A program made the translations under genes and the position numbers. Shown here piece by piece: positions 8,745-11,891 of a stretch of 19,039 nucleotides of DNA. The first letter of the stretch is position 1. Each line of letters begins with the position of its first letter. The notes beneath the pieces are model-generated. The model was given only the letters and a program-made list of their open reading frames with translations, ran no database searches and was not told the origin of the DNA. The stretch is from Candidatus Borrarchaeum weybense (lineage in GTDB: Archaea > Asgardarchaeota > Sifarchaeia > Borrarchaeales > Borrarchaeaceae): positions 662,508-681,546 of the forward strand of contig JAHQJS010000004.1 of NCBI GenBank assembly GCA_019057385.1. Reading direction: 5' to 3'.

Positions 8745-8979
8745 AAGATCACTTTACGTTATTGACTAGTATGAGAATTCTTAATAGTATGGTTTTCTTT
8801 ACATTAATTAACATTGTCCATTCTCCGTTGGTTTTGAAGAAAACAATTCCTTATTCACTTTTATGGCAAAGTTGGATGGATATTTTTAAACTGAAGGTGA
8901 GAATAAGCTAAGATGCAATCAATTAACCAATTGATACTCACTGCTAAAACCACGACATAACACATTTTTGGTGAACTTA

Positions 8980-9849
8980 ATGATTATGGTATTGAAGGGG
9001 CACACTGAGACTGTTTACGACATTGCTATCAAAAATGATGGTCTTATTGCATCAGCGTCTGGTGACAAGACGGTTAGACTCTGGGATTTAAAATCAGGTA
9101 AACAATTAAAGGTACTTAAAGGCGCACATTCAAAACCAGTGTATGGAGTGGCGTTTCACCCCTTTGATGATAATCTACTTGCAACGTGTTCGATGGATAA
9201 CGAGATCGCATTATGGGATATAGCTACAGAAACAAAATTAAAAACATTGAAGGGGCATACGAAATCGATTCGATCGATTAGTTTTTCTCTTGATGGAAAT
9301 GTATTGATATCAGGATCAAATGATAAAACTATAGGATTATGGGATATATATTCTGGCAATCTTCTAAGAACACTAAAAGGGCATCTCGATCAAGTGTGGA
9401 GTGTTGCGATTGGCTATGATATTACCCTTGCCTCCGCTTCTAAAGATAAAACAGCACGTTTGTGGAATCTAGAAACAGGAGAACTTCTGCAGGTTTTTTC
9501 ACATGCCAATTACGTTTCAGATGTAGCGTTCTCGCCACAAATTGACCTTTTAGCATCCGCATGTTTCGATAATAACATCTATTTCTGGCAAAGTGGCTCA
9601 AAATCTCCTGTCAGGCTTATAAAAGCCCATGAACAACCTGTGTTAGGCATAGCTTTTAGCCATAATGGTAAATTTGTTGCATCGAGTTCTGCAGATAATT
9701 CCATAGGTCTATGGGATGTTCGTACTGGTGAATCTATTTTACGATTAACTGGGCATTCCGAGCCAGTTAGAAAGATTTTATTCAATTTAGATGATTCATT
9801 TTTGATTTCTTGTTCAGAAGACAAAACAATTGGTATCTTTGAAATTTAG
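8980..9849 (+). CDS. seven-bladed WD40 beta-propeller protein (propeller only)
   Basis: Seven consecutive GH...WD-type repeats, for example GHTETVYDIAIKNDGLIASASGDKTVRLWDL. The start is ambiguous among TTG 8968, GTG 8971, ATG 8980 and ATG 8986. ATG 8980 has GGTGA 6 nt upstream. Confidence 0.85.
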   Translation: MIMVLKGHTETVYDIAIKNDGLIASASGDKTVRLWDLKSGKQLKVLKGAHSKPVYGVAFHPFDDNLLATCSMDNEIALWDIATETKLKTLKGHTKSIRSISFSLDGNVLISGSNDKTIGLWDIYSGNLLRTLKGHLDQVWSVAIGYDITLASASKDKTARLWNLETGELLQVFSHANYVSDVAFSPQIDLLASACFDNNIYFWQSGSKSPVRLIKAHEQPVLGIAFSHNGKFVASSSADNSIGLWDVRTGESILRLTGHSEPVRKILFNLDDSFLISCSEDKTIGIFEI

Positions 9850-10157: not shown

Positions 10158-10667
10158 TAGTTACCACCTCTTCAATAGTTAACATAGACTTTGTAGATTG
10201 TTATATCGAGTTACCGTAATTTACGATATCCTTTTTTTTGGCTATTTGGGCAAAAAATCGATTCAATAGGAGATTTTTTCTTTTATTCCATAGGAAAATG
10301 GGTTTAATTAAGGGTTCATTTTAAAAAATGACCCCCGTCTGGAGGAAAATTCGCCTCTTGACGAAAACCCCTTCTAATTCCAACATTCAATTTTTTGACA
10401 TTTCTTGTTTACTACTTTCATTTATCACCTCTTTATTGAATGTTCAATATTTTTCACAAATATTGTTCATTTGTCTTATTAATTACCTCTAGATCGTTCA
10501 TTTAATAGATCAAATTGAATACCAACATTAAATCGTTCATTTATAAATCTTTCGCTATAGAAGATGATCGAATTATATCAAAAAAGATATTTTTTTACAT
10601 TTCTATTTCAAAAAGAGTTGTATATTTCACTTACGTGTTACAAATAGGCTAAAAAGTTCTAGTAGGC

Positions 10668-10741
10668 GATTTGGTGAACTTTGGCTAAGTTATCAAGAAC
10701 AAGAAATCATCTTTTTTTTCTTTCTTATTCCCTACCAAATC
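10668..10741 (-). promoter_or_regulatory. candidate SECIS-type 3'-UTR RNA element, copy 1
   Basis: Minus-strand RNA folds as follows:
- outer stem GAUUUGGU/ACCAAAUC (8 bp)
- 12-bp helix GGGAAUAAGAAA/UUUCUUGUUCUU, closing a 14-nt A-rich loop GAAAAAAAAGAUGA
- small hairpin AACUU-AGCCA-AAGUU
The block is ~93% identical to the block after the paralogous gene. It starts inside the stop codon and is followed by a T5 tract (plus-strand aaaaa 10651-10655). Confidence 0.55.
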
Positions 10742-11216
10742 ACTTATTTAACTTTTCAAGCACTTCGAATAATGCTTTATTCTTCGGAATGTCGCTCATA
10801 GAATCACTGTAATAAGCATATTGAATGATTCCCTCTTTGTCGACTATAAGTAGCGCCGGCATGCGTCCTAATTTTCGAATTTTGAATTCCTGATGCAGTT
10901 TTTTGGCAACTTCCTTATTGTTATCGTAATATATCGGAAATTTTTCTTTCGCGTACTTTTGTTCCATCTTAATAGCATTTTCAAGCGTGTCTACCAAAAT
11001 TGGATAAATAATCGTGTCTAATTGCTCAAATTGCTCTTTATCTTTAGCAAAACTGCGAACTTGTGCTCTGCAATATGGTCAGTTGATGCTTCTAAGTAAA
11101 GCAACGATAACATTATTCTTTTCGATGAAGTCTTTGATGTTTACGTTTTCTTCCCTTGAATTAGGCAGAGAAAATTCTTCAATTTCCTTCCCTACCATTT
11201 CAAATTTATCCTTCAT
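10740..11216 (-). CDS. thioredoxin-fold Prx-like (AhpC/TSA-redoxin, PRX-like2-type) selenoprotein with a U-P-Y-C redox motif (158 aa, Sec at codon 46)
   Basis: The ATG at 11216 opens a frame running to the TGA at 10742-10740, with a single in-frame TGA at 11081-11079. Hand translation: ...NNVIVALLRSIN-U-PYC-RAQVRSFAKDKEQF...MPALLIVDKEGIIQYAYY.... The ORF track shows only the last 85 aa (10740..10997). Confidence 0.75.
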
Positions 11217-11333
11217 TCGTCTCTCTCTCAAGTTCTCCGTCCTTTGAATTTACTTTGATTCTGTCATTACAGTGTTTTTAATCTTTATTGATGCGGTATA
11301 CGGCCCTTTTGACTTAAAAATAAGAATTCTGGC

Positions 11334-11406
11334 GATTTGGTCAACTTTGGCTAAGTTACGAGAACAAGAAATCATCCTTCTTTTCTTTCTTATTCCCTAC
11401 CAAATC
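11334..11406 (-). promoter_or_regulatory. candidate SECIS-type 3'-UTR RNA element, copy 2
   Basis: Minus-strand RNA reads GAUUUGGU-A-GGGAAUAAGAAA-[GAAAAGAAGGAUGA]-UUUCUUGUUCUC-G-UAACUU-AGCCA-AAGUUG-ACCAAAUC. The architecture matches copy 1. It begins 5 nt after the TAG stop and is followed by a T5 tract (plus-strand aaaaa 11316-11320). Confidence 0.55.
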
Positions 11407-11411
11407 AGTTA

Positions 11412-11891
11412 CTACTGTAGATTTCTAATTGCTTCTAACAATTCCTCAATTTTAGGATTGTCCTTTCCAGAATCACCATAGTAAGCATATTGTATGATTC
11501 CTTCTTTATCTACTATGAGGACGGCTGGCATTCGTCTATATTTGTCATCTACTAATTTAACTTCCTGGCCGAGTATTGTTAGTACTTCTTTCGATTCATC
11601 ATAGTACACAGGAAACTTACCTTTTGCATATTTTTGCTCCATTTCAATGGCATTTTTGAGTACATCCTCCGTAATTGCAATGATGATGGTATTTGACTGA
11701 TCAATCTCATCAAAATGATTAGCTAAGCTCTGGATGTGCTTTCTTCAATGTCCTCAGGCCAGTCCTTTTTTCAATGATATGACTATGTTTTTTCGTCCAA
11801 GAACTTCTTTAATATTTACCGTTTCGCCTCTCGAATTAGGCAGGGAAAACTCCTTGATGTGTTTTCCTATCATATTAAATTTATCTTTCAT
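11412..11891 (-). CDS. thioredoxin-fold Prx-like selenoprotein with a U-G-H-U (double Sec) redox motif (159 aa, Sec at codons 46 and 49)
   Basis: The ATG at 11891 opens a frame running to the TAG at 11414-11412, with in-frame TGAs at 11756-11754 and 11747-11745. Hand translation: ...KNIVISLKKGLA-U-GH-U-RKHIQSLANHFDEIDQ...MPAVLIVDKEGIIQYAYY.... The ORF track shows only the last 76 aa (11412..11642). Confidence 0.75.

Follow-up and report, generated by a model that had tools for sequence, protein, structure and literature searches.

The stretch of DNA analysed here (the window) is 19,039 nucleotides (nt) of Candidatus Borrarchaeum weybense (GenBank assembly GCA_019057385.1, contig JAHQJS010000004.1, positions 662,508 to 681,546 of the forward strand). 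It contains two tandem genes for peroxiredoxin-like (Prx-like) selenoproteins on its minus strand, each followed by a conserved block of about 75 nt. A first-pass annotation made from the letters alone had proposed that the RNA of these blocks is a selenocysteine insertion sequence (SECIS), the element through which in-frame UGA codons are read as selenocysteine (Sec; U in protein sequences). The data presented here suggest that the blocks are the SECIS of one Prx-like subfamily of Asgard archaea, and that their shape differs from that of the Asgard SECIS elements described so far.

Results

The two selenoprotein genes

The host genome is that of a Sifarchaeia/Borrarchaeales Asgard archaeon and not of the Lokiarchaeota, from which the first-pass annotation had taken its context; the closest genome record is that of Candidatus Borrarchaeum yapensis, with 96% protein identity. 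It is listed among the Sec users, and SelD, HdrA and FrhD are among the selenoproteins of the host genome (Huang 2024, PMC11227280). In translation, gene 1 (10740..11216, minus strand) encodes 158 aa with the redox box U-P-Y-C (UxxC) and has one in-frame TGA, the Sec codon at 11079-11081, before its UGA stop at 10740-10742. The product matches Pfam AhpC-TSA (9.7e-21) plus Redoxin, and is identical to the entry Sifarchaeia_GCA_019057385_U_2 (Huang 2024, PMC11227280, supplement file 79). Gene 2 (11412..11891, minus strand) likewise translates into 159 aa with the redox box U-G-H-U (UxxU), with Sec codons at 11754-11756 and 11745-11747, the two in-frame TGA, and a UAG stop at 11412-11414; its product matches AhpC-TSA (1.4e-16) plus Redoxin. 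The published entry for this gene, Sifarchaeia_GCA_019057385_U, agrees with the product at every residue that it covers, but it is only a 48-residue fragment that ends at the second Sec (Huang 2024, PMC11227280). The full frame of 159 aa runs past that residue to the UAG, with a possible diselenide redox box.

Both genes are thus of the AhpC/TSA type, and their products are 54% identical (65% for the coding DNA). The TGA codons of both coincide with the positions of a CxxC redox box, and the first redox-box UGA (the second too in UxxU) aligns with Cys of the homologues P0017 and P0067. Both genes are already known selenoprotein genes, and the new part is the RNA behind them.

Two copies of a three-way-junction RNA

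Copy 1 of the element (10668..10741, minus strand, 74 nt) follows the UxxC gene 1, and copy 2 (11334..11406, minus strand, 73 nt) follows the UxxU gene 2. The annotated blocks had been drawn slightly too wide, with three extra bases (GCC) outside these structured units. As had been claimed, the blocks are far better conserved than the genes before them. They are identical at 72/77 positions (93.5%), whereas no 75-nt window of the two coding sequences exceeds 79% identity, and the 80 nt beyond the blocks are 55% identical. All five differences between the copies are located where the annotation had placed them: two are substitutions in an apical loop, one changes G-C to G-U at the base of the long helix, and two are linker changes (a 1-nt indel where the long arm is joined to the small hairpin, and a substitution before the outer stem).

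When the minus-strand RNAs were folded with RNAfold, copies 1 and 2 gave an identical three-way junction, in agreement with the anatomy first described. The fold energies were -19.0 kcal/mol for copy 1 and -23.0 kcal/mol for copy 2 as its 76-nt block (z -3.35 and -3.94), and 0/200 shuffles folded as well as either block; transcripts of the plus strand of the blocks were unremarkable in folding (z ~ -1.4). The outer stem, P1, has 8 bp and is formed in copy 2 by the 5' strand GAUUUGGU (11399..11406) and the 3' strand ACCAAAUC (11334-11341), and in copy 1 by the strands 10734-10741 and 10668-10675. The long arm, P2, spans 11360..11397 in copy 2 and 10695-10732 in copy 1. In copy 2 it is an A/G-rich helix of 12 bp (GGGAAUAAGAAA/UUUCUUGUUCUC), closed by a 14-nt apical loop that reads GAAAAGAAGGAUGA at 11372-11385 and GAAAAAAAAGAUGA in copy 1 (10707-10720). 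The small hairpin, P3 (11342..11358 in copy 2, 10677-10691 in copy 1), reads UAACUU-AGCCA-AAGUUG in copy 2, with the loop AGCCA. All of these parts are on the minus strand.

The placement of the elements relative to the genes was largely as described. The first-pass annotation had both of them start 0-5 nt after the stop codon; this is true of copy 2, which starts 5 nt past the UAG of gene 2, but copy 1 overlaps its gene by 2 nt, since it begins with the GA of the stop codon UGA. From the Sec codons it is 340, 341 and 350 nt downstream to the element starts, close to the ~340 nt that had been given. T5 tracts on the same strand begin 12 nt past copy 1 (10651-10655) and 13 nt past copy 2 (11316..11320), within the expected ~15 nt, and the latter is a probable transcript end.

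Relatives of the element

Relatives were collected in three ways. A protein-guided scan with one genome per species gave seven loci from Borrarchaeota and other Asgard metagenome-assembled genomes. In this set each complete Sec-encoding homologue directly precedes a homologous element, and tandem paralogues own one each; the long arm varies within a conserved frame, GAUUUGG ... UUAGCCA ... CCAAAUC. A pattern scan of metagenomes for GATTTGG-N30-60-STTAGCCA-N5-9-CCAAATC, which set no condition on neighbouring genes, gave 99 loci. At 64 of them a homologue of the window protein ends at the element, and the other 35 are either chance matches (on higher-GC contigs, with no common fold) or copies cut by a contig end, among which L049 and L093 are clearly real. 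Finally, a covariance model built from 60 distinct copies was run on ~459 kb of fetched loci plus the window. True copies scored 54-90 bits and everything else at most 34 bits, mostly on the reverse strands of true copies. The window copies scored 74.0 bits (copy 1, E 7e-13) and 75.0 bits (copy 2, E 4e-13). Four tandem copies that had escaped the exact pattern were recovered by the model; they have UUCGCCA loops or end in CCAAAUU, and each follows a Sec-encoding paralogue. In total, 68 distinct copies were gathered from genomes and metagenomes.

No third copy was found by the model in the window, and none elsewhere in the ~459 kb of Asgard loci. The first-pass annotation had named copies after ordinary genes as a finding that would speak against a SECIS; neither the metagenome pattern scan nor the covariance search of ~459 kb turned up a real one. 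A weak model match (25 bits, E 0.03) at L104:1397-1468 (-), which lies ~400 nt downstream from the true copy in L104, resembles a decayed copy (GAUUAGAU...GUUAGCCACACUAUCCCUUAUU).

The position seen in the window is general. The gap from stop to element is -2 to +5 nt in 57/60 genes, the median distance from the Sec codon down to the element is 343 nt, and the terminal stop is itself UGA in 8/60 genes. T5 or longer is located within 80 nt of 53/69 copies, at a median distance of 10 nt, and an oligo-T tract lies within ~20 nt of 48/69. Archaeal transcription is terminated at oligo-T tracts, so the element probably forms the extreme 3' end of the mRNA. Wherever the upstream gene could be read (75 copies), the element points in the same direction as that gene.

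Covariation and conservation of the structure

The first-pass annotation had asked for covariation in a wider alignment, and this was found. In a plain MAFFT alignment of the 60 distinct copies 90.9% of cells are paired and 16/25 pairs change on both sides; 0/500 shuffles reached any of five measures, and sliding the partners by 1-3 columns cut pairing to 31-60%. The model-based alignment of 68 distinct copies gave similar values (92.2% paired, 15/25 pairs changing on both sides). Most of the covariation is held by P2, with compensatory changes at 10 of its 11 modelled pairs. The arm has 10-12 bp overall, with a loop of 11-17 nt between modelled pairs in 59/60 copies; the loop begins RAAA in 42/60, ends UGA(N0-2) in 48/60 and ends GA(N0-2) in 54/60. 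In P1 seven pairs are near-invariant in the 68-copy alignment and the eighth covaries (UA 37, AU 15), and at the centre of P3 42 sequences have a GC pair and 26 a CG pair. RNAalifold alone predicts P2 and P3. In the 17 copies that were found without a sequence constraint, GAUUUGG is present in 16/17 and CCAAAUC in 15/17, and the P3 loop is UUAGCCA in 13 and UUCGCCA in 4. The conservation of P1 and of the P3 loop is therefore real, but it rests on fewer sequences.

One explanation of such a block is that it is a mobile or repeated sequence, such as a miniature inverted repeat with GATTTGG/CCAAATC ends, or an independent small RNA gene. The inverted-repeat ends, the two copies in the window and weak C/D-box snoRNA-like matches in Rfam (E ~6) are what this would predict. 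However, the interior covaries as RNA helices, the orientation is constant in 75/75 copies, the start lies within 5 nt of the stop in 57/60 with a placed stop, and no further copies were found in the remainder of the window or at other sites in the ~459 kb of Asgard loci; the Rfam matches are far under gathering scores (22.7 vs 51 bits). Position, orientation and absence elsewhere effectively refute this explanation, which we regard as very improbable.

Linkage to selenocysteine

Every one of the 69 copies with an upstream gene readable across the redox box follows a gene of one Prx-like subfamily, here called PrxL-B (proteins beginning MKDKF), with TGA at the first redox position. The redox types are 38 UxxC, 15 UxxA, 12 UxxU, 3 UxxS and 1 UxxT, with 0 Cys. 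Six further copies, from protein look-up or the covariance model, likewise follow Sec-encoding PrxL-B genes. The element is also retained by a group of UxxU paralogues with no more than 31-36% identity to the window protein; the RNA outlasts the similarity of the proteins.

Cys/Asp homologues exist at similar protein identity, and three such controls are without the element. The genes of P0017 and P0038 (loci L009 and L010) lack it, and their stop codons are overlapped by a convergent gene. On the single contig L113 a Sec gene with its element lies directly upstream of the Cys paralogue P0067, which has none. The covariance model, run with filters off, had no match on the Cys/Asp control loci. 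Two properties expected of SECIS elements in general are present here, namely an in-frame UGA at a Cys position in a Sec-using organism, and an element that occurs with Sec forms and is absent from Cys forms (three controls).

These controls bear on the possibility that the element is a cis-regulatory element, or one for mRNA stability or termination (for example redox- or selenium-responsive), that has no role in recoding, with the SECIS lying elsewhere or not being needed. Such an element could well be family-specific and absent from the HdrA-VhuD genes (see below), sit at the extreme 3' position beside an oligo-T tract and have no canonical SECIS core, all of which is the case. However, it was never found with Cys/Asp family members, each gene of a tandem pair has its own copy, and the loop is similar to those of accepted Asgard SECIS elements. 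Near the genes, no second conserved structure was seen that might serve as the SECIS instead; downstream matches to the canonical pattern are inconsistent and no commoner than in shuffles. A purely regulatory role is therefore considered improbable, and the SECIS reading is preferred.

Two further observations concern the PrxL-B genes. Those with Sec first but Ala, Ser or Thr in place of the resolving Cys (the UxxA, UxxS and UxxT types) have the same element with a distinct 15-nt loop type that ends UUGA; the loci include L004:2272-2342, L016:9037-9107, L058:3010-3080 and L087:1776-1846. In addition, public calls on short metagenome contigs (P0001-P0016 and many others) render the Sec codon as Trp (INWPYCR), and some of them run through the UGA stop into the element, with tails such as ...NKWFGRE and ...PHWFGKRKIEKY.... 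These seemingly full-length proteins with 'Trp' are selenoproteins that were decoded wrongly.

Comparison with known SECIS elements

Published Asgard SECIS elements (lokiSECIS) are hairpins with AUGA, a stem of ~9 bp, an 11-nt loop with adenines first and G last, and then GA or AA (PMC4989117). The pattern was generalised by Huang 2024 to NNGAN-stem(7-15)-loop(8-20)-stem-N[G/A]A, the type I eSECIS-like form, with a type II that has a mini-stem (PMC11227280). A 2026 review has only those Asgard forms plus the methanogen GAA_A form, and a full-text literature search for SECIS with 'three-way junction' found nothing relevant. SBP2 is not known in Asgard archaea (PMC4989117; PMC11227280).

The element shares with the lokiSECIS its place in the 3' untranslated region (UTR), adjoining or overlapping the stop, with the probable transcript end following. 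It also shares a helix of ~9-12 bp, within the 7-15 bp allowed for the upper stem of type I, and a loop of 11-17 nt, within the allowed 8-20 nt, that starts with adenines and has a conserved G at or near its 3' end. In contrast to the lokiSECIS, Watson-Crick pairs at the base of P2 lead directly into the three-way junction, and the near-invariant P1 (GAUUUGG/CCAAAUC) and P3 loop (UUAGCCA) have no canonical counterpart. The defining type I core, [A/G]UGA 5' and GA/AA 3' of the upper stem, was not found: a scan of the 68 copies for the AUGA/GA quartet, which allowed one spacer nt and one mismatch, gave 4 sporadic matches and none in the register of P2. The first-pass annotation had pointed to AUGA as a eukaryote-like core; in the element AUGA sits in the apical loop and not at the helix base. 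Without the defining type I core, the element falls outside the published eSECIS-like type I family.

It could nevertheless be argued that the P2 hairpin alone is the SECIS, an ordinary type I eSECIS-like element, and that P1 and P3 are an unrelated stabiliser or terminator add-on. Stem length and A-rich loop are as in published Asgard elements (PMC4989117; PMC11227280), an oligo-T tract follows, and where position 8 is A the loose pattern NNGAN-stem-loop-stem-NAANN matches P2 (23 loci, offsets 4-8). However, position 8 covaries as a Watson-Crick pair (UA 37, AU 15) and not as a sheared G-A, and the loose published type I pattern is uninformative, with 49/55 loci matching vs 39/55 shuffled and the matches at inconsistent positions. 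P1 and the P3 loop are moreover the most conserved parts of the 3' region and are kept at 31% protein identity, which is unexpected for a generic stabiliser. On this evidence it is unlikely that P2 acts alone, though less so than a purely regulatory role, and the SECIS is best sought in the three-armed element as a whole.

Other placements of a canonical core were also tried and rejected. The published lokiSECIS shape (AUGA, 9 bp, 11 nt, 9 bp, GA) could not be forced on the element because the strands of copy 2 cannot pair despite fitting the AUGA-GA spacing and CA stands in place of GA in copy 1. Beside PrxL-B genes, no hairpin of this shape turned up when all low-GC loci were scanned with the pattern. 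The NUGA at the 5' edge of P1 (GUGA/CUGA in the window, AUGA in 16/60 genes) was rejected as a SECIS core because its partner strand ends UC and not GA/AA, so that GA pairs canonically, and L002 has GG opposite UC. The GCCA of the P3 loop as a mimic of a tRNA 3' end, or P3 as a T-loop, was considered and had no support. Hairpins that fit the canonical Asgard SECIS pattern occur at L039 (-) 83 and L016 (+) 2382 (for example ATGA-TGATCAGGAAATT-AAAATATCCAAAC-GATTTCTTGGTTG-AA, 13/13 pairs) and may belong to other selenoprotein genes on those contigs.

Canonical elements were found with other Asgard selenoprotein genes. The Borrarchaeal HdrA-VhuD pair has a canonical AUGA-C-UCUUGAAAC-GUAAACAUUGUG-GUUUCAAGA-A-GA. 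At L110:3820-3880 (and the same in L111 and L112) the UGA stop of VhuD forms part of the AUGA of this hairpin, and the next gene of the operon begins ~66 nt past the VhuD stop. The Prx-like genes analysed by Mariotti et al. 2016 in Lokiarchaeum GC14_75, PrxL.1/PrxL.2 (PMC4989117), belong to a different subfamily, PrxL-A, of FFRGxW-U-xx-U/C proteins, whose relatives carry AUGA-UUUAUGUGC-AUAAAGGAUAG-GUACAUAAU-GA, precisely the published form. The canonical PrxL-A and HdrA-VhuD elements escape the covariance model of the new element (best 10 bits, E ~3).

PrxL-A and PrxL-B are of the same protein superfamily with the same redox-box Sec positions, and their RNAs have some likeness. Minimum free energy folds of PrxL-A elements also have an outer helix (CCCAG/CUGGG), a long hairpin with an A-rich loop and a small 3' hairpin, although this three-way fold was seen in three sequences with weak z of -0.4 to -0.7 (L115:1554-1650, L116:1515-1610, L117:1527-1625). 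Some PrxL-B loops, such as ACAGUAAAUGAUUGA, hold nearly the whole 11-nt apical loop of PrxL-A, AUAAAUGAUUG. However, the P1 and P3 sequences are unrelated, and in PrxL-A the AUGA and GA stay single-stranded, in junction strands of ~10 nt and 4 nt, where those of PrxL-B have 0-2 nt and no GA pairs. The three-armed layout may be ancestral to Prx-like SECIS elements, in which case PrxL-B would have lost the single-stranded AUGA/GA and fixed its junction sequences.

More distant relatives were also compared. The element is like eukaryotic SECIS elements (forms 1 and 2; RF00031) in its place in the 3' UTR, in its presumed action on a distant UGA and in an A-rich apical motif on a long helix, but it has no kink-turn quartet at the helix base and no helix I/internal loop arrangement. 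With the euryarchaeal SECIS (Methanococcus/Methanopyrus) it shares the 3' UTR of an archaeal selenoprotein mRNA; the euryarchaeal GAA_A bulge and three consecutive G-C pairs in the upper stem were found in 0/68 copies. The first-pass annotation was thus right that the shape is neither the methanogen hairpin nor a canonical eukaryote-like form. Other than that, many P2 loops read stem-(N)GA...AUGA(N)-stem, in which a C'-like RUGA comes after a D'-like GA as in the K-loop of archaeal box C'/D' RNAs, and the PrxL-A element has the strand order of a k-junction (a kink-turn elaborated into a three-way junction). These likenesses are of sequence only, and the GA...UGA pair is missing in several copies; no tandem G-A pairs are possible at the PrxL-B junction itself. 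A K-loop, or the sheared G-A pairs that the annotation had suggested for the loop, would fit many copies but not those of L008, L002, L005 and L024, nor most loops of the UxxA group.

Discussion

The covariation of the element, its restriction to Sec-encoding genes and its position behind the stop suggest that it is the SECIS of the Asgard subfamily PrxL-B, with a probability of roughly three in four. The SECIS reading of the first-pass annotation is thereby supported. We would class the element as a structurally new Asgard SECIS variant that is specific to one Prx-like subfamily, with a shape that was not found described in the literature. A stronger claim, that it constitutes a second, structurally distinct class of Asgard SECIS (a three-way junction with no quartet, in one Prx-like subfamily, alongside the canonical hairpins), is one on which the evidence leaves us evenly divided.

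Several points weigh against this assignment. It is drawn from comparative data, as is that of every Asgard SECIS. The element is without AUGA before and GA/AA after its helix, which the lokiSECIS has, and the AUGA in its loop is not universal, being absent from L008, L002, L005 and L024. Rfam, searched with the whole window and an 801-nt part of it at E up to 10, found no SECIS, ribozyme or riboswitch family, only chance-level matches to snoRNA, Y RNA and the like that were far below gathering scores. In the 99 metagenome loci P1 and the P3 loop are invariant because the search pattern prescribed them, and independent support comes from the 17 copies. The linkage to Sec could partly be due to shared descent, since all carriers are of one protein subfamily and the Cys/Asp controls are three. 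Lastly, the first-pass annotation had proposed looking for the element after other selenoprotein genes, and here its expectation failed, as the Borrarchaeal HdrA-VhuD pair has the canonical hairpin instead. One decoding machinery would then have to accept two shapes. The element is therefore specific to a gene family and not the general SECIS of the organism. However, this weakens the case only slightly, because family-specific SECIS shapes are already accepted for SPS/SelD (PMC4989117) and because Cys/Asp homologues are without the element.

If the element is a SECIS, it could work as follows. From its position and folding we infer that it is transcribed within the mRNA as the last ~75 nt and folds there into the three-way junction. 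P1 (GAUUUGG/CCAAAUC) would close the structure, P2 would present, on 10-12 bp, a loop of 11-17 nt with an (G)AAAA start and an UG(A) end, and P3 would present the loop UUAGCCA. With a ribosome at the redox-box UGA ~340 nt upstream, the folded element would recruit the archaeal Sec-specific elongation factor with Sec-tRNASec, either directly or via an adaptor, and the UGA would then be decoded as Sec. P2 with its loop is the likely recognition surface in common with the canonical Asgard eSECIS-like elements, because it is the part that they share, and the junction with its sequence-invariant P1 and P3 may stand in for the AUGA_GA kink-turn quartet. Because the element starts -2 to +5 nt from the stop, a ribosome at the true stop would be expected to unwind P1; this would turn the signal off, and no Sec would be inserted at a terminal UGA.

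Asgard SECIS elements serve as an evolutionary bridge from archaeal to eukaryotic Sec decoding, and the argument is built on the AUGA_GA core. In eukaryotes this kink-turn core is the docking site of SBP2. If the element is indeed a second class of Asgard SECIS, a helix with an A-rich apical loop is the feature common to all Asgard SECIS elements, and it, and not the kink-turn, is the candidate determinant for the SBP2-less Asgard machinery. A junction could then take the place of the kink-turn, with P1 and the UUAGCCA loop as the sites of sequence-specific contacts. PrxL-B is widespread (Lokiarchaeia-type and Sifarchaeia/Borrarchaeales genomes; 68 distinct sequences) and would have kept the apical part and replaced the core, which would make it a natural experiment on the features that the Asgard machinery reads. 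Additionally, because true copies separate cleanly from background, the covariance model can be used to find and extend Prx-like selenoprotein genes that gene callers truncate or mistranslate.

Other features of the window

Two further plus-strand genes fit an Asgard origin, one for a seven-repeat WD40 beta-propeller protein (8968-9849) and one for an archaeal tRNA-intron endonuclease (922-1548). In an AT-rich gene-free stretch of ~480 nt downstream of gene 1, a TCGTTCATTTA-like motif occurs four times at 10414-10543 (+), twice in exact form, at spacings of 31-49 nt. The window-wide count of the motif is not above chance, but the copies are clustered here.

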